Positions 13,753-61,012 of a stretch of 64,000 bases of DNA are shown here, in pieces. The notes beneath the pieces were generated by a model. That model searched no databases, was not told the DNA's origin, and saw only the letters and a program-made list of their open reading frames with translations. The position numbers were made by a program, and so were the translations under genes. Position 1 is the stretch's first letter; each line of letters opens with the position of its first letter. Source of the stretch: a virus (taxonomy: Duplodnaviria > Heunggongvirae > Uroviricota > Caudoviricetes); IMG/VR virus record IMGVR_UViG_3300031992_000008, positions 64,001 to 128,000 of that record, one strand, 5' to 3'.

Positions 13753-14412
13753 ATGTTTTACAAAAAGAAACTTCAGATAATTGATATTGATGATACACTT
13801 GTTATGACCAGTGCCAAGTGGATTCTGGAAGCTGTCAAGCATCCGGGGCTAGCTAGGAGAATTGGTAAGCTCAATGTAGCACTTGAAGCAGTAACTGATA
13901 TGAAGCTCTATCTTGCTGATGTGTATTGCAGATTGCAGTATAGGCTTGAAGACTACCTTGAAGTTAGAGATATTGCTCGCAGTCTCTTCTATAAGGCTTA
14001 TACGGAGAATGGTAATTTCTATGACGACCTTGGTTTATCTTCCTTTGGAGCATCTCTGCTTACTGGTGGTGTTGGACAAAAAATTATTTTCCTGACCCAC
14101 ACTCTTGATGGAGCTTGCAACATCTCTAAGTCTAAATGGATCAAAAAGAATTTCGGTGCACTGGACTATGAGTATGTAGAAATACCTATTACACAATCTA
14201 AGGGCGAGTATATCCAAGAGCACTATCCGGACTTCGATACATTCGTGGACGACAGTCCGACTTGTCTGCTCGATGTTATAAACAGATTTAGAAAAGAGCC
14301 AAAGTATGTGGCATTTCCTGAATATGGTTATAACCTCGTTATAAATGAATTTGCCCAGACTCTCGGTGAAGGTGATAAGATCACCATTAGGAGCTTCATC
14401 CAGAAGTGGTGA
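13753..14412 (+). CDS. HAD-superfamily phosphatase (5'(3')-deoxyribonucleotidase-like)
   Basis: Motif I IIDIDDTLV, motif II FLTH, Lys motif SKG, motif IV FVDD, PEYGYN. Confidence 0.8.
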   Translation: MFYKKKLQIIDIDDTLVMTSAKWILEAVKHPGLARRIGKLNVALEAVTDMKLYLADVYCRLQYRLEDYLEVRDIARSLFYKAYTENGNFYDDLGLSSFGASLLTGGVGQKIIFLTHTLDGACNISKSKWIKKNFGALDYEYVEIPITQSKGEYIQEHYPDFDTFVDDSPTCLLDVINRFRKEPKYVAFPEYGYNLVINEFAQTLGEGDKITIRSFIQKW

Positions 14413-14423
14413 ACTCCTTAATA
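14412..14423 (+). promoter_or_regulatory. Putative non-virion-RNAP promoter AACT-N6-TA
   Basis: AACTCCTTAATA upstream of the SD GAGG of 14438. Confidence 0.6.
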
Positions 14424-14437
14424 GATCCGAGGTCATT

Positions 14438-15919
14438 ATGAAAATAGAATTAGCCAATATTGATACCATCATCGAGAAGAATAAACTGCCTGAAGTATCT
14501 AATCCTGTATACATCAACGCAGATAAGACTCCTACAGAAGATGGTATCTTCTCCTATACAATCTATGGGAGACCAGGCTCTAAAAGACGCAAACTTCAGT
14601 TTGCGTATATTGATTTGGGTAAGCCTTTCATGCATCCATTGGCTTACAAGGAATTTAGTAGAATCTGCTCGGCAGCTTCTGCTATTCTGACTGGTACAAA
14701 GACTTTCTCCGTCTCTGCCAGAGGCGAGATTGTAGAAGATCCGAAGGGCGGTACTGGAATTAGTTGGCTCTATGCTAACTGGGATAAGATCAAATTTGAC
14801 GATAGAAACAACCGTTCCAGATCAAACCGTATCGAGCTTTTGAAGATCTATGATAAGAAGCATATCTTCTGTACAAAGTGGATTACTATCCCGGCATTCT
14901 ATTACGACATCAACTTCACTAAGGAACTTTCCAGAATCTCTATTGACGAGATTGGTGACATGTATGTAGGCTTGATTTCCAAGTGCCAGAGCCTTAAGAA
15001 CGAAGGTGGATTCTTTACTACCTATGCTCTTGAAGCTAAGATTCAGGAACAACTAGTTCTCATCATGGACTACTTCATTGGCAAGATTGCTAAGAAGAAT
15101 GGTCTTGTTCATAGTACCATGCTTGGTAAAAACGTTGACTATACTACTCGTGGTGTGATTTCCGCTGAACACATTGCTGATGCAGATACCTATGATCAGG
15201 CTACGGTGCTGTTCGAAGATGTTGGTGTTCCTCTGCATCAGGCTGCTGCTCTAGCTCTGCCGTTCGTCTCGTATGAATTCAAGGCAATGCTCAGGGAAGT
15301 TAACGAAGACTCCTTCTTGGTTGAAGAGTCTCACGGAAAGTACACACAGGTTAGCTTCGAGTCCATGTCTACTGACGTAGCAGAGAGGTTCGTAGCAAAC
15401 TTCGCCAGAACCAGAGAGTTCCGTACAGAGCCGTTCTTTATCCTTAAGAGTGACGGTAAGCCTCTAGACTTCTCTTCACTAGGCTATTTCGGTGAGCTCA
15501 AGAGACCGTTGAATAACACTGACGTATTGTTCTATCTTACGAAAGAAGCTATGAAAGATAAACATATCATCGTCGTAAGATACCCGATCGAAGACTATCG
15601 TAACATCAGCTGTCACAGACCTGTGATTCTTACAACCGAAGCTACTACCGAAGTAGGAGGTATTAAGAACTATCCTGACTTCAGTGTAACTCCGATTAAG
15701 TGGAATGAAACCATTCAGCTTCACCCTGCTGTACTTAAAGCTATGGGTGCTGACTTTGACGGTGACACTGTGACACTTAAGTTGGTCTTCACTAAGGAAG
15801 CCAACGCAGAGCTTGAGAAGTATATCTACTCGGCAAAAAATGTTACAGACCTTACTGGAGACGTCTCTAGAAAATTTGGTGCAGAGCCTATCCAAGCACT
15901 CTACACTATGACACTGTAA
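14438..15919 (+). CDS. Multisubunit RNA polymerase beta' N-terminal/catalytic subunit (virion type)
   Basis: Start moved to ATG 14438. DGIFS..IYG, AYIDLG..FMHP, GKNVDY..RGVI, VRYP, catalytic GADFDGD; lacks the N-terminal Zn ribbon. The virion assignment is inference. Confidence 0.88.
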   Translation: MKIELANIDTIIEKNKLPEVSNPVYINADKTPTEDGIFSYTIYGRPGSKRRKLQFAYIDLGKPFMHPLAYKEFSRICSAASAILTGTKTFSVSARGEIVEDPKGGTGISWLYANWDKIKFDDRNNRSRSNRIELLKIYDKKHIFCTKWITIPAFYYDINFTKELSRISIDEIGDMYVGLISKCQSLKNEGGFFTTYALEAKIQEQLVLIMDYFIGKIAKKNGLVHSTMLGKNVDYTTRGVISAEHIADADTYDQATVLFEDVGVPLHQAAALALPFVSYEFKAMLREVNEDSFLVEESHGKYTQVSFESMSTDVAERFVANFARTREFRTEPFFILKSDGKPLDFSSLGYFGELKRPLNNTDVLFYLTKEAMKDKHIIVVRYPIEDYRNISCHRPVILTTEATTEVGGIKNYPDFSVTPIKWNETIQLHPAVLKAMGADFDGDTVTLKLVFTKEANAELEKYIYSAKNVTDLTGDVSRKFGAEPIQALYTMTL

Positions 15920-29308: not shown

Positions 29309-29340
29309 TTTAGCTCCTTTTGTTAGATTGATACTGTAAT

Positions 29341-29378
29341 TAATATAATGCTGCATACAAAAATTTTACGGATCATAG
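29341..29378 (-). promoter_or_regulatory. Extended early promoter CTATGATCCGTAAAATTTTTGT-N11-TATATTA
   Basis: Same upstream box and identical spacing as 36091, 59611 and 60205, but without the structured leader. Confidence 0.7.
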
Positions 29379-29413
29379 AAAAATTAATAACACCATATAA
29401 ATAACCTGACCAG

Positions 29414-29444: not shown

Positions 29445-30824
29445 ATGCGGTTAGAAATAGTAAACATTGACGAGGCGTTCGATCCTACAAGGGTGATCAC
29501 ATCCAGTGAAGCTCTTGAAAAGGATGGGACATTTGCAAATGACTCTATTTACAGTCCTGGTTTGTTTGGTACTATGGACGGAACGGAAAAGACCTTCTCG
29601 TGCAACTGCGGAGCACTCCGTGGAAGAACTAATGATGGTTTGATCTGTGAAGAATGCCATACAGAATGTAAAGAAAACGGTAATAAGATTGAAAATCTTG
29701 GATGGATTGATATCAGTAATGAATTCAAGCTCATCCACCCGGCTATCTATCCGTTTATCGAAAAGTACATTGGTGCCAAAAGACTAAAGGCGATGTTGTA
29801 CGCCCAGATTCCGATCGATATAGACGGAAATGTTTGTGAAAGCAAAGAACCGAAAACAGCATCTAATCCATATCCAGAATTGATTGGCTTGGGTCTTCCC
29901 GACTTTGAAGCTAACTTTGATGGGATAATGGAACTGTTCAAACCTGCCGCCGGAAAGGATCCGGATAAAATGAAGCTCTATAACTTCATTAGGAAGAACA
30001 GGGATAAGGTGTTTATCAGTAAATTCCCGGTTATTTCTTCGAAGCTTAGACCGTGTTTAGTTAAAGGCAAACAAGTGATTCAGGATGAGCTGAATACAAA
30101 GTATTTGCAGTTGACAAGACTGGTCTCTTGCTATAGAACACTCGGATTCGATAATGAGCCGCTGTCTGTGTTCCCGCTGTTTGCGAAGATGCAACAGTTG
30201 GTGAATGAGCTCTATGACGCTATCATCGAATCCCTGAACGGAAAGACTGGAATTATTAGAAACCTGATGCTGGCTGGAAGATTGAATTTCTCTTCTAGGT
30301 GTGTGATCGTTCCTACTCCGCTCGAAGAAAAGCCTGATGCCGTATACATCCCGTACATTGCAGGATTAGAGCTTATGAAGCTTCAAGTGATGGGTAGACT
30401 TCACAGAGACTATCATCTGGCTTTGGAAGAAGCTAGAGTGCGAATTGAAAACGCACAGAGAGAATTCGATGAAACAGTATATAATCTAGCGGTTGAAGAG
30501 CTTGGTGAGAATGGTTTCCCTGCAATTCTGAACAGAAACCCGAGTATTGCACTTGGTTCGTTACAGAAGGTCAGGGTAACTAAGATTAAGAGAGATCCTA
30601 CTGATTACACGATGAACATCAGCGTGATGATCTTTACTCCTCTTAATGCCGACCTTGATGGTGACGTGTTGAATCTGTTCTTGCTGCCTAATAATGGTAA
30701 AGCGGCGTTCAACAATATCCGACCGTTCGATCTCATCTTTGATTTCAACTCAGGCGAAGTTTCTAACGATTTTCTGCCAAGAAAAGACTATCGAGTAGGA
30801 CTTGATTTCTTAGTATCAACATAG
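29445..30824 (+). CDS. Multisubunit RNA polymerase beta' N-terminal/catalytic subunit (non-virion type, AR9 gp270-like)
   Basis: Zn ribbon CNCG...CEEC, LGWIDI, PVISSKLRP, GKTG.IR, GRLNFSSRCVI, LNRNPS, catalytic NADLDGD. Confidence 0.92.
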   Translation: MRLEIVNIDEAFDPTRVITSSEALEKDGTFANDSIYSPGLFGTMDGTEKTFSCNCGALRGRTNDGLICEECHTECKENGNKIENLGWIDISNEFKLIHPAIYPFIEKYIGAKRLKAMLYAQIPIDIDGNVCESKEPKTASNPYPELIGLGLPDFEANFDGIMELFKPAAGKDPDKMKLYNFIRKNRDKVFISKFPVISSKLRPCLVKGKQVIQDELNTKYLQLTRLVSCYRTLGFDNEPLSVFPLFAKMQQLVNELYDAIIESLNGKTGIIRNLMLAGRLNFSSRCVIVPTPLEEKPDAVYIPYIAGLELMKLQVMGRLHRDYHLALEEARVRIENAQREFDETVYNLAVEELGENGFPAILNRNPSIALGSLQKVRVTKIKRDPTDYTMNISVMIFTPLNADLDGDVLNLFLLPNNGKAAFNNIRPFDLIFDFNSGEVSNDFLPRKDYRVGLDFLVST

Positions 30825-36061: not shown

Positions 36062-36090
36062 GGTGGAGACTTCGGTCTCCATTCTTTTTT
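36062..36090 (+). terminator. Intrinsic terminator (UUCG loop)
   Basis: TGGAGAC-TTCG-GTCTCCA followed by TTCTTTTTT. Confidence 0.8.
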
Positions 36091-36206
36091 CTAAGATCCG
36101 TAAAATTTTTATCTATGATCCCATATTACTTTATGCTGAATAGTACCTGAATGATGCGAGTGCACGTTCTTGATCCTGCTATGAAGCAAACCTAAAGAGG
36201 TATATT
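36091..36206 (+). promoter_or_regulatory. Extended early promoter plus structured 5' leader, copy 1 (hairpin 36134-36188)
   Basis: ~115-nt element highly similar to 59496-59611 and 60091-60205 (both minus), with compensatory stem changes. Confidence 0.8.
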
Positions 36207-36497
36207 ATGTTGAACGAACTCATTGGTGTCATCATCGCCGCATTCCTGATTGGATGTCTCGTTACATCACTCACGAAGAATAAGTCCAATATCTTTTGTG
36301 CGTGGGTGACGGTAATCTGGTTCGCAGTTGCTTCTGTAAGAACATTCTTCGTTCAGGACTACGATCCTGATTTGAAGTATGACTACGAACTCTGGACTGC
36401 GACTAGGGCAACTCTCTTCATACTCACGGCTCTCTTTGTATGGAGACTGTCGTGGTTGAGGACTCACAGAGCTGCATCTAAGAAGGAGGGGAACTAG
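36207..36497 (+). CDS. Small multi-TM membrane protein
   Basis: SD AAGAGG right after the leader; three hydrophobic helices. Confidence 0.75.
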   Translation: MLNELIGVIIAAFLIGCLVTSLTKNKSNIFCAWVTVIWFAVASVRTFFVQDYDPDLKYDYELWTATRATLFILTALFVWRLSWLRTHRAASKKEGN

Positions 36498-59013: not shown

Positions 59014-59058
59014 CGGAACATAGAAAAAAGAAAGGCTGCTGTCACCAGCCAATCTTTT
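59014..59058 (-). terminator. Intrinsic terminator, duplicated at 59632-59678
   Basis: GGCTG-GTGACAG-CAGCC followed by TTTCTTTTTT and CTATGTTCCG; ~45 nt nearly identical between the two copies. Confidence 0.85.
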
Positions 59059-59495
59059 TATCCAACGATGATGAGATCTCCACAGTTGTAATCCACCGTG
59101 TTTCCTGCGTTAAGCAAACGGGACTTGATACTGTCAAGCAGGTATTTCTTAGAATACTCTGCATCGGCGTCGCAGTCAAACCCATCTGTCATGATGCTGA
59201 TGGTGATCTTCCCAGTGGAAAGGTTGTAGTACACATTATCGTCATCGCATTTCACAGTGACGAATTCTATAGTTACCTCGATACCGTTGTCGAGATCAAG
59301 GTTATCATAGTGCTCAAGAGCAACTTCCTTGATCTTCTCCTCGATACCTGCGATGCCATGTTCATCACGACCAATAACGGTCGTGACCGTGTCTTCCAAC
59401 CAGTCATGGAGATCATTACGCACCTTTTCACGACGAGCTTTTTCTGCGGCAGTTGCGGCTTCTTTCTTGTTCTTGATTTCTTCGAAAATAGTCAT
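59058..59495 (-). CDS. Hypothetical early protein (cassette gene)
   Basis: Own promoter/leader and terminator; N-terminal coiled coil. Confidence 0.8.
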   Translation of the reverse strand: MTIFEEIKNKKEAATAAEKARREKVRNDLHDWLEDTVTTVIGRDEHGIAGIEEKIKEVALEHYDNLDLDNGIEVTIEFVTVKCDDDNVYYNLSTGKITISIMTDGFDCDADAEYSKKYLLDSIKSRLLNAGNTVDYNCGDLIIVG

Positions 59496-59611
59496 AGTAA
59501 ACCTCTTTGGGCTTGCCTCTTAATCATATCAAGAATGTGCACTCGCATCATTCAGGTATTAATCGGCATAAGTTAATATGGGATCATAGACAAAAATTTT
59601 ACGGATCTTAG
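59496..59611 (-). promoter_or_regulatory. Extended early promoter plus structured 5' leader, copy 2 (hairpin 59514-59568)
   Basis: Alignment with copies 1 and 3. Confidence 0.8.
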
Positions 59612-59631
59612 AAAAGAAAAGGCGAACTTCA

Positions 59632-59678
59632 CGGAACATAGAAAAAAAAGAAAGGCTGCTGTCACCAGCCGATCTTTT
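59632..59678 (-). terminator. Intrinsic terminator, duplicate of 59014-59058
   Basis: Same GGCTG-GTGACAG-CAGCC hairpin and tail. Confidence 0.85.
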
Positions 59679-60090
59679 AGATGCACAGAGAATACGTGAA
59701 GTATTCTTCGGAGTCTCGTTCATATCCGTTAACGGTGATGTTCCTGATATCCAGAGGGATGCCAAAGAACTTTGCCAGCGCAGTGCGCATGATCTGCACA
59801 TGGCGCATTTCGGAGAACGGCTTTTCGCCAACAGACATGAAGAGGGTCACGGAATCCCTACCAACGACGGAGTGGGGAATCTGCAGCCTGTGACCCTGAC
59901 GGATCTTTACGATGAGCTTCTTGAAGTCGTTTTCATAGGCCTTGCGCACAGCATCAGCGATATTATCGCTGCAGAGCTCAAGACGCGCAGTGTAAGTCTT
60001 GTTCAGTTCGAGACGACGTTCGGCTTCCTGCTTTTCTTTGAGTTCCTTAGCAGCGATGACTTCAGCTTTGATCTTTTCAATATTCAACAT
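59677..60090 (-). CDS. Hypothetical early protein (cassette gene)
   Basis: Own promoter/leader and terminator; N-terminal coiled coil. Confidence 0.8.
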   Translation of the reverse strand: MLNIEKIKAEVIAAKELKEKQEAERRLELNKTYTARLELCSDNIADAVRKAYENDFKKLIVKIRQGHRLQIPHSVVGRDSVTLFMSVGEKPFSEMRHVQIMRTALAKFFGIPLDIRNITVNGYERDSEEYFTYSLCI

Positions 60091-60205
60091 AATATACCTC
60101 TTAAGGTTTGCTTCATAGTAGAATCAAGATTGTACACTCGTATCAATCAGGACTATTCGGCATTAGTTAATATGGAATCATAGACAAAAATTTTACGGAT
60201 CTTAG
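60091..60205 (-). promoter_or_regulatory. Extended early promoter plus structured 5' leader, copy 3 (hairpin 60109-60162)
   Basis: Alignment with copies 1 and 2. Confidence 0.8.
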
Positions 60206-60235
60206 AAAAAGAAAAGCGGCACTAGGCCGCTATTA

Positions 60236-60493
60236 CTAGATATCCCTGCTTTCATTAAGCGTCGGAATTTCCTCCGCCTCATGAAAGCCTCCAACGATTC
60301 CGTTAGAGGAGGAAAACCGGATTTCTCCGATTTCCCCAGAAACATCATTTTTGTATTTTACAATCATTCCGTAATGACCGTCGCTTTCAATATCCGTTAC
60401 CTGACCAGAAACACCATCAGCCATGTAGACGACCGGGCGCTTCTCGACGAAAGCACGAATAAGGTTTCCGAAGGTTCTGATATCTTCAGCCAT
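60236..60493 (-). CDS. Small hypothetical protein
   Basis: Start moved to ATG 60493 behind AAAGGAG; terminator AGCGGC/GCCGCT at 60215-60231. Confidence 0.72.
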   Translation of the reverse strand: MAEDIRTFGNLIRAFVEKRPVVYMADGVSGQVTDIESDGHYGMIVKYKNDVSGEIGEIRFSSSNGIVGGFHEAEEIPTLNESRDI

Positions 60494-60518
60494 TTTTACT
60501 CCTTTGTTAATGTTTAGC

Positions 60519-60534
60519 CATAAAATAATATACA
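60519..60534 (-). promoter_or_regulatory. Putative early promoter (TATATTA class)
   Basis: TGTATATTATTTTATG, identical to 22675-22690. Confidence 0.6.
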
Positions 60535-60574
60535 AAAAAGATTCAGATATGTACAGAACATATCTGAATATAAA

Positions 60575-61012
60575 TTATCTGACTTTTTGCATAGTCCTAT
60601 CTTCAAGAGTAGTGGTAATACCAATCTCTTTTTCCGATCTTTCGATGATCTCAAATAGATCTTTTAGGTATGCAGGTTTGAGGATCTTAATACTTGGAAG
60701 ATTAAACTCCTCATGCTTTGTAAGCTTGCACATGTATAAGACTAGCCACCATAGGTCGGTGGTACCATAGTAGTCCTTAGCTACTAGTTCTGGTCTGTAC
60801 TTGTACTTTTCGTCAAGCTCTATACGCATGGTATAGCCTTCAAGAAGATCGTAGAACTTCATGAAGCAAGGAATAGGGGAATCTAGTGTAATCTCTCCAA
60901 ACTTGTAATCTTGACTAAGCCTTGATAGAATAACTGAATTTCCGGCGGCAGATGCCAACGAGTCAGCAATGTTCATTTTTGCGCCGGAGTCAATATTTGC
61001 ACTAATACTCAT
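60575..61012 (-). CDS. Baseplate wedge protein with LysM-like domain (T4 gp53/tail-X-like)
   Basis: YKYRPELVAKDYYGTTDLWWLVL. Confidence 0.8.
   Translation of the reverse strand: MSISANIDSGAKMNIADSLASAAGNSVILSRLSQDYKFGEITLDSPIPCFMKFYDLLEGYTMRIELDEKYKYRPELVAKDYYGTTDLWWLVLYMCKLTKHEEFNLPSIKILKPAYLKDLFEIIERSEKEIGITTTLEDRTMQKVR

Follow-up and report, generated by a model that had tools for sequence, protein, structure and literature searches.

What is the structured element that stands in front of several unrelated genes of this virus, and what could it do for the messages that begin with it? The question was raised by an earlier note on the window, which here means the whole stretch of 64,000 nucleotides that was analysed (bases 64001-128000 of a 235.3-kb IMG/VR virus record). 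Judged from its sequence, the source phage is an uncultured AR9/PBS1-like rumen jumbo phage: its relatedness to AR9 shows in split RNA polymerase subunit genes and in protein matches, two window genes (14345-15919 and 29445-30824) carry RNA polymerase Rpb1 domain 2, and the 454-aa protein adjoining copy 1 of the element has its phage relatives only in jumbo phages of the AR9/PBS1, phiR1-37 and Staphylococcus SA1 types. Other genes of the window encode a divergent DnaB, a family-B polymerase and a baseplate wedge protein. Runs and metagenomes that contain the phage come from sheep and cattle gut, and megablast found no match to the region among the phage records of GenBank. In jumbo phages of the AR9/phiKZ type, the early genes are transcribed by the phage's own polymerase, which is injected; to our knowledge, almost nothing is known about how these early messages are stabilised or translated.

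A repeated cassette in front of unrelated genes

All three copies described in the earlier note are present in the window, at 36091 (+), 59611 (-) and 60205 (-), where a 38-nt block matches three times with 0 mismatches and 0 matches expected by chance. A copy number of three is right for the window and too low for the genome, which holds five copies in 235 kb. The fourth, near-identical copy (c4) lies outside the window at genome 59189-59307 (-); the fifth (c5), also outside, is strongly diverged and was recovered at genome 192902-193014 (-) by the covariance-model search of the genome that the note had proposed, with a model built from four copies.

The copies have the form of a cassette whose order is terminator-like hairpin with T-run, promoter, hairpin of ~55 nt, small SD hairpin and start codon, and in c1, c2 and c3 a GC hairpin with T-run lies directly 5' of the promoter block. 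At copy 1, on the plus strand, an intrinsic-terminator-like hairpin (TGGAGAC-TTCG-GTCTCCA plus T-run, 36064-36090) ends the upstream 80-aa gene and directly precedes the promoter block (36091-36128), which is identical in the three window copies and contains the upstream element (TT)CTAAGATCCGTAAAATTT and the -10-like CATATTA (36122-36128). The predicted transcription start, placed by analogy with AR9, is the conserved G at 36135, 6 nt past the -10-like 7-mer. The leader hairpin (36134-36188) is followed by the small SD hairpin ACCU/AGGU (36190-36209) with its SD AAGAGG at 36195-36200 and the start codon at 36207-36209, from which a gene (36207-36497) runs that encodes a 96-aa hydrophobic, probably membrane protein without known family.

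The other two window copies are neighbours on the minus strand. Copy 3 consists of a terminator-like hairpin (GCGGC-CTAGT-GCCGC plus T-run, 60206-60230), the promoter block (60168-60205, predicted +1 G at 60161), the leader hairpin (60109-60162) and the SD (60097-60102) of a gene for a 137-aa orphan protein (59677-60090). After this gene, and upstream of copy 2, the sequence contains a further terminator-like hairpin with T-run (59642-59670), followed by the promoter block of copy 2 (59574-59611, predicted +1 G at 59567), its leader hairpin (59514-59568), an SD at 59502-59507 and a gene for a 145-aa protein without family (59058-59495). Between the terminator of the copy-3 gene and the intact promoter of copy 2, comparison with the upstream elements of relatives revealed a decayed duplicate of the promoter upstream half, TTCTATGTTCCGTGAAGTT (59625-59643, -), which resembles a scar of cassette duplication or recombination.

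The earlier note had observed that the downstream proteins differ. This can be extended to the whole genome, in which the five are unrelated orphans, one of them hydrophobic and none with a family; comparison with Pfam, PHROGs, a homologue search and the atlas returned nothing informative. The promoter spacer is identical only among the hairpin-bearing c1-c4 and the metagenome homologues L146 and L172, and therefore promoter and leader move together as a single duplicated cassette. Copies within one phage are more alike than copies from different phages. Among the few loci that were compared, the cassette is absent at the c1-equivalent position of the 242-kb relative G002, and the phage's own gene at genome 176378 has no hairpin where its apparent orthologues in L148 and L152 (similar in their N-termini only) have one. 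Thus the element is dispensable for any given gene. At the c1-equivalent position of G002 (L115:3600-3905, +) a different small membrane-protein gene directly follows the helicase gene; it is preceded by a GAC-UCAGGAG-GUC SD hairpin alone, the terminator-promoter-hairpin cassette being absent.

The promoter class

The note had treated each ~115-nt element as a single leader. This has to be corrected: its first 38 nt are a promoter, which is also found in front of leaders without the hairpin. The promoter motif is GTAAAATTT-N13-yATATTA/TTTAATA-N6-G, with a fuller upstream half (TTCTAWGNN)CCGTAAAATTT and the -10-like 7-mer (yATATTA or TTTAATA) 13 nt downstream. It occurs at 12 sites in the phage's own genome, 7 of them with quite different leaders, and at 10 sites in relatives. 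One of these sites is a fourth same-class promoter in the window (29334-29383, -), which has no hairpin and a short leader whose 5' end GUAUC pairs with GGUAC just past the start codon. A scan with the sigma-70 consensus found no site on the cassette strand and a single match on the opposite strand, and the 21 matches of the promoter pattern in IMG/VR all came without the upstream element or an SD.

In AR9 the experimentally mapped early promoter, used by the virion RNA polymerase, reads AAATATATATTAT-(6N)-G+1, that is ...ATTAT-N6-G+1, and the early promoters of phiKZ and phiR1-37 have the same layout (PMC5312081). The same arrangement of a conserved AT-rich element, a 6-nt spacer and a G at +1 is present here, the G lying exactly 6 nt past the 7-mer in 21 of the 22 sites, whether the hairpin is present or not. 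By this analogy the phage-specific cassette promoter is probably one of the early virion-RNAP type, its timing and its polymerase being predicted.

Two promoters of the class outside the window, at genome 8242 (+) and 233532 (+), have the same -10 region and the same initial ~24 nt of leader (aatagaGaatcttaaccatcaacaa); one of them lies 1.8 kb from the end of the record, and the common sequence may have arisen by duplication or belong to a terminal repeat. The promoter of c5 is overlapped by a perfect 27-bp palindrome, CACCCTAATTA-TTTAA-TAATTAGGGTG (L125:1576-1602, -, corresponding to genome 192977-193003), which spans the -10-like element and the predicted start and recurs in metagenome contig L133; the palindrome may serve a DNA-binding repressor as its operator.

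The fold of the leader hairpin

The secondary structure proposed in the note could be reproduced as written, since the MFE folds of the three copies show its helices P1-P4, the bulged A and the GAGU loop. Copy 1 is built of P1 (U)GCU/AGC(A), the GA/GA step, P2 AUAGU/GCUAU, an internal loop of ACCU opposite UUGAUCCU, P3 GAAUG/CGUUC, a bulged A between P3 and P4, P4 UGC/GCA and the apical GAGU. The corresponding helices of copy 2 are (U)GCC/GGC(A), UUAAU/AUUAA, GAAUG/CAUUC and UGC/GCA; those of copy 3, which lacks the A before CCUGA, are AUAGU/ACUAU, GAUUG/CAAUC and UAC/GUA for P2-P4, with one C-A mismatch in P1.

The stem changes, which the note had called mostly compensatory or G-U, are indeed of this kind. 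In the alignment of four copies 98.5% of the cells are paired, five pairs are double-compensatory, two are G-U and the C-A mismatch of copy 3 is the single one. The claim of a selected fold likewise withstood the larger alignment of 14 sequences, in which 97.0% of the pair cells are standard pairs, 12 of the 17 pairs are changed on both sides and 0 of 500 shuffles were as good, and in which sliding the partner columns by 1-3 positions lowered pairing to 25-48%. This alignment was fitted to the covariance model; the test was repeated with an independent MAFFT alignment and RNAalifold, which recovered P2, P3 and P4 with 8 of 13 pairs compensatory. G-U pairs occur at three positions, and the sense strand folds more stably than the antisense strand (on average -14.4 versus -11.9 kcal/mol; -15.8 versus -9.5 for c1 and -18.4 versus -9.3 for c5). 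This argues that the selected structure is one of RNA and not a DNA palindrome.

The unpaired positions follow a different rule. The note had listed CCUGA, GAGU and UCUUGAU as invariant; CCUGA, CGAGUG and UCUUGA are so in all 14 sequences, and the final U is replaced by A in two and by G in one. The bulged nucleotide is A in 12 of the 14 and U in the remaining two. The two GA steps, also said to be invariant, are constant only in the c1-c4 type of this genome and are replaced in 7 of the 14 family members, where other lineages have A/AU, Watson-Crick pairs plus a bulged C, or a 6x2 junction. Altogether, invariance extends to about 16 nucleotides of the loops, the bulge flanks and the closing positions, and it includes the very diverged c5 with its metagenome twin. 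In 235 kb, the apical module of 5 bp, a bulge, 3 bp and GAGU is found only at the five copies, with 0.7 occurrences expected from shuffles. All known members come from a single narrow phage group, so part of the loop invariance could stem from shared ancestry or from gene conversion between copies.

Two leaders deviate from the common architecture. In a leader of the same promoter class in G002 (L120:1501-1579, +, corresponding to G002:76112-76190) the apical module stands alone, with a bulged A and UAC-GAGU-GUA, on a continuous 12-bp helix without the CCUGA/UCUUGA loop. The family member L160 has a poorly paired P2 and looks recombinant and perhaps decaying (1671-1748, +): P2 combines a 5' strand of the c2 type with a 3' strand of the c1 type.

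Several other features were considered for the hairpin and rejected. A mini-ORF AUG-N12-UGA across P1 and P2 (MLNST* and similar) has the AU of its start codon 5' of the predicted +1 and no SD; relatives have AGG or GUG in place of its AUG, and copy 3 has a different frame. The upstream AUG of the 3' strand (CUAUGAAGCA) is missing from the copies of phage-B type. The hammerhead-like CUGAnGA comes with no GAAA, no stem III and no Rfam match, and neither the 11-nt GNRA receptor nor the sarcin-ricin loop fits the hairpin.

Family and range

The note could not assign the fold to a known family, and none was found when the whole window was compared with Rfam 15 at gathering thresholds. With the cutoff relaxed to E<=10, copy 1 and its flanks matched only terminator tails of sRNA models, all on the upstream terminator: the terminator-like hairpin of c1 aligns with the terminator ends of the sbrA and PhrS models. 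A search pattern made of the invariant loop letters only found homologues in rumen metagenome contigs and in G002, and the covariance model confirmed nine additional distinct sequences with scores of 29-103 bits; the remaining 37 pattern matches scored no better than chance. The family thus comprises 14 distinct sequences, namely the five genome copies and these nine from related rumen phage contigs.

Beyond this group the element was not encountered in the collections that were searched. In IMG/VR the loop-only DNA pattern gave 88 matches, all attributable to chance (single, mostly in coding DNA and with at most 6 of 8 stem pairs), and a tighter pattern matched only the relative G002. The tighter pattern gave 15 chance matches in prokaryote DNA with one genome per species, with covariance-model scores of at most 22.7 bits, and no counterpart of the hairpin was found in the 25 AR9 early leaders that were inspected. 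On comparative grounds, the hairpin is a solid candidate for a new cis-acting leader RNA family of narrow range.

The predicted 5' end and the ribosome-binding region

In the predicted transcripts the hairpin starts at the conserved G that is the predicted +1, and nucleotide 1 is paired in 13 of the 14 MFE folds. This includes the diverged c5, which still pairs the predicted 5' end by a P1 (GUGAU/GUCAC) of quite different sequence. If the AR9 rule is taken strictly, +1 lies one nucleotide further downstream than the predicted G. Pairing of the 5' end is also common in same-class leaders without the element: four of ten pair it at P>=0.98, which is equalled by at most 5% of shuffles. An element-less leader of one relative carries an unrelated hairpin at +1 with P(paired) of at least 0.98, and in the long leader at genome 16816 a hairpin begins at +3. 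Since a basal helix sits at the predicted +1 and sister leaders independently pair their 5' ends, sequestration of the 5' end is indicated. In AR9 the early 5' ends were poorly enriched by TEX and the authors suggested dephosphorylation (PMC5312081); as early 5' ends are possibly dephosphorylated there, a paired 5' end would be useful.

In the other three of the four leaders with P(paired) of at least 0.98 (29334-29383, -, in the window; genome 8242, +, and 51023, -) the first 5-7 nt pair with codons directly past the start codon, by GAAUCUU/AAGAUUC, GUCAU/AUGAC and GUAUC/GGUAC, and the whole ribosome-binding region is closed into a loop.

The 3' end of the hairpin lies ~8-10 nt before the SD, and the hairpin itself therefore does not occlude the ribosome site. 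The SD is enclosed by the separate small hairpin, whose stems vary with pairing kept (ACCU/AGGU, UAGUC/GACUA, AUUGAC/GUCAAU, UACC/GGUA). The same kind of SD hairpin precedes the cassette-less gene of G002, which argues that it is a general trait of these phages and not a part of the element.

Contigs from gut RNA libraries

A weak hint of transcription comes from RNA contigs of sheep gut, which match the phage at 100% identity and contain the genes of c2 and c3 together with the 3' two-thirds of their hairpins: the c3 gene is covered with its leader to 60140/60147, the c2 gene with its leader to 59553/59550. A 93%-identical relative was found in a bovine run. Contig depths, such as 1026 for the c3 homologue in a bovine run, were left out of any ranking of expression. 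These data are assembled contigs, which cannot show a 5' end and in which uncovered parts carry no evidential weight; this applies to the upstream gene (60181-60607) and the promoter blocks, which the sheep RNA contigs leave uncovered. The c2 contig stops inside a 35-nt stretch common to c4, which would break an assembly at k=31. Since the contigs join the loop and the 3' strand of the hairpins to the coding regions, transcription is unlikely to begin 3' of the hairpin.

In one sheep RNA run the c3 contig ends at C60140 (-), just 5' of the GAGU loop, and continues straight into the Illumina adapter, so that a recurrent fragment end is indicated at this position; contigs of two other runs end at 60143 and 60147. 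The fragment end could be an RNA 5' end produced by cleavage or a low-depth artefact.

What the element might do

We propose that the element is a portable cassette in which an intrinsic terminator, a phage-specific promoter, a four-helix hairpin of ~55 nt at the first transcribed nucleotide, an SD hairpin and the start codon would act as a unit. The basal helix would sequester the mRNA 5' end and thereby shield the message from 5'-end-dependent decay. A trans-acting factor, most likely a phage or host protein, would dock sequence-specifically on the invariant CCUGA/UCUUGA internal loop and on the apical module with its single bulged nucleotide, three pairs and C-GAGU-G, and would co-regulate the stability or the translation of the five unrelated element-bearing genes. 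That a specific trans-acting partner reads the invariant nucleotides and co-regulates the gene set is, in our estimate, an evenly balanced proposition; it is favoured because protection alone would leave ~16 invariant nucleotides unexplained amid rewritten stems. More narrowly, and only tentatively, the invariant loop and the bulge-GAGU module may be the operator of a dedicated RNA-binding factor, which could be a family-less phage protein or the phage RNA polymerase itself.

The strongest competitor is a plain 5' stabiliser or insulator hairpin, carried on a recombination cassette like those called PeSL, in which only pairing and 5' position would matter and the loops, without a specific partner, would owe their invariance to recent common ancestry and gene conversion among copies. 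We regard this as possible and rather doubtful. It would account for a unit of terminator, promoter, hairpin and SD that recurs in front of unrelated small genes, is found at some orthologous positions and missing at others, has a decayed promoter half next to copy 2 and is more alike within one phage than across phages. Other same-class leaders also pair their 5' ends with unrelated sequences, and the 5' stem-loop of aprE offers a precedent (reference 109 of PMC3997798). However, a simple protective stem does not need an asymmetric internal loop and a bulge, and about 16 nucleotides are invariant even in the diverged c5 although 12 of 17 pairs have been changed on both sides.

The note had suggested that the internal loop could form a kink-turn-like motif. 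Sheared GA pairs from CUGA and UUGA would then lie next to a U-U pair, and a protein of the L7Ae/YbxF type, probably from the host, would repress or organise the leader. CUGA and UUGA, and thus GA on both strands, are invariant in 14 of 14 sequences; the position after GA on the 3' strand, opposite the invariant U20, is U, A or G and never C; and the pairs that would have to open (G-C and A-U; G21-C41 and A22-U40) never covary and so lend no support to Watson-Crick pairing, although the same 5' GA can also pair with UC in that way. The adjacent C-stem pair does covary. The geometry fits less well, for the bulge is 4 nt (UCUU, unpaired in 14 of 14) versus the canonical 3, and N47 and C19, which face each other at the next NC-stem position, never pair. 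Moreover, MFE and alifold both prefer the Watson-Crick version, no Rfam family containing a K-turn matched, and a PF01248 search of the phage genome found no gene of the L7Ae family, whereas control genomes gave matches. Thus the kink-turn is unlikely.

A regulatory switch, whether riboswitch-like or dependent on a protein, appears quite improbable. Here CCU(GA) of the internal loop would be an anti-SD that pairs with the SD (AGG, or UCAGG in relatives), and a ligand or factor would select the state. CCUGA is exactly complementary to UCAGG in the SD-hairpin loop of six relatives, and ACCU is complementary to the SD AGGU in the phage's own copies, but all members share no more than the three nucleotides CCU/AGG, of which AGG is conserved in any case as SD. 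The flanking positions do not covary cleanly (about 8 of 14, by eye), P3 already engages the G and A of CCUGA in pairs, and functionally unrelated orphan genes suit a metabolite sensor poorly.

The least credible reading, and in our view very hard to sustain, is an RNA that acts on the polymerase (a put-like processive antiterminator) or an RNase III-type processing site as in T7 and SP82 early RNA: the hairpin does lie directly after an early-type promoter and its ~20 stacked pairs with an internal loop have the size of phage RNase III sites, but the c3 and c2 units are single genes with their own terminators, so that read-through would have no target, no RNase III gene is present in the phage, and in the RNA contigs the coding region is still joined to the 3' half of the hairpin, a weak indication that the 3' strand is not cleaved.

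Returning to the proposal of a paired 5' end with a docking site, the element is a well-supported RNA family candidate at a predicted 5' end, in front of five unrelated genes, and the conservation of its loops goes far beyond the needs of a protective hairpin. The leader RNA is therefore a concrete bait for an RNA-binding factor of these phages, and the cassette is a compact promoter-leader module for testing 5'-end protection. Searches of the phage for RegA, RNase III and S1 found none of them. If the dedicated-factor reading is true, some of the early genes of AR9-like jumbo phages would form a post-transcriptional regulon, and 5'-end sequestration would then be a general design rule of virion-RNAP transcripts. 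The surprise is limited by the narrow range, which is one rumen phage group, and by the fact that cassettes of promoter and leader hairpin are already known as a kind.

Comparison with known systems

With the kink-turn and box C/D RNAs the hairpin has in common the CUGA and UGAU boxes, a possible tandem G-A and a U-U pair; it differs in its 4-nt bulge, in the lack of pairing beyond U-U and in the absence of an L7Ae gene from the phage. The operators of the MS2 and PP7 coat proteins and of T4 gp43 resemble it as short helices in an mRNA leader, with one bulged purine a few pairs below a specific small loop. These operators overlap the SD or the AUG and regulate one gene, whereas the rumen element ends upstream of the SD and precedes five genes. 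It therefore does not look like a classical translational operator: the hairpin lies 8-10 nt 5' of the SD, and neither RegA nor any other of the RNA-binding families searched was found.

The promoter is similar to the early promoters of AR9, phiKZ and phiR1-37 in its long conserved AT-rich element ending in ...ATATTA(T), its 6-nt spacer and its G start (PMC5312081). The upstream half of the rumen phage promoter, TTCTAWGNNCCGTAAAATTT, has no counterpart in the AR9 early promoters.

In Firmicutes, a 5' stem-loop and a strong SD are the recipe for a long-lived mRNA, as in the aprE leader (reference 109 in PMC3997798). The stabilisers of B. subtilis aprE and ermC and of E. coli ompA likewise have a stem-loop at or near the 5' end, which here is a predicted one, and then a strong SD. 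Those, as cited in PMC3997798, are simple single-gene hairpins without a conserved loop, in contrast to the rumen element, which is a multi-copy family with invariant loops.

The PeSL cassettes of T4-type phages are small terminator/promoter units repeated between genes, in front of small, variable and mostly orphan early genes, and, like this cassette at the few loci compared, they are present or absent between close relatives and carry traces of recombination (PMC2839356, PMC4122927). A composite of terminator and early promoter before small variable genes is what we find at c1, c2 and c3. However, the PeSL promoter is of the host sigma-70 type and its stem-loop is the terminator (PMC2839356, PMC4122927), whereas the rumen cassette has a phage-specific bipartite promoter. 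Unlike PeSL, the cassette of the rumen phage places an extra 55-nt multi-helix RNA with sequence-invariant loops inside the transcript.
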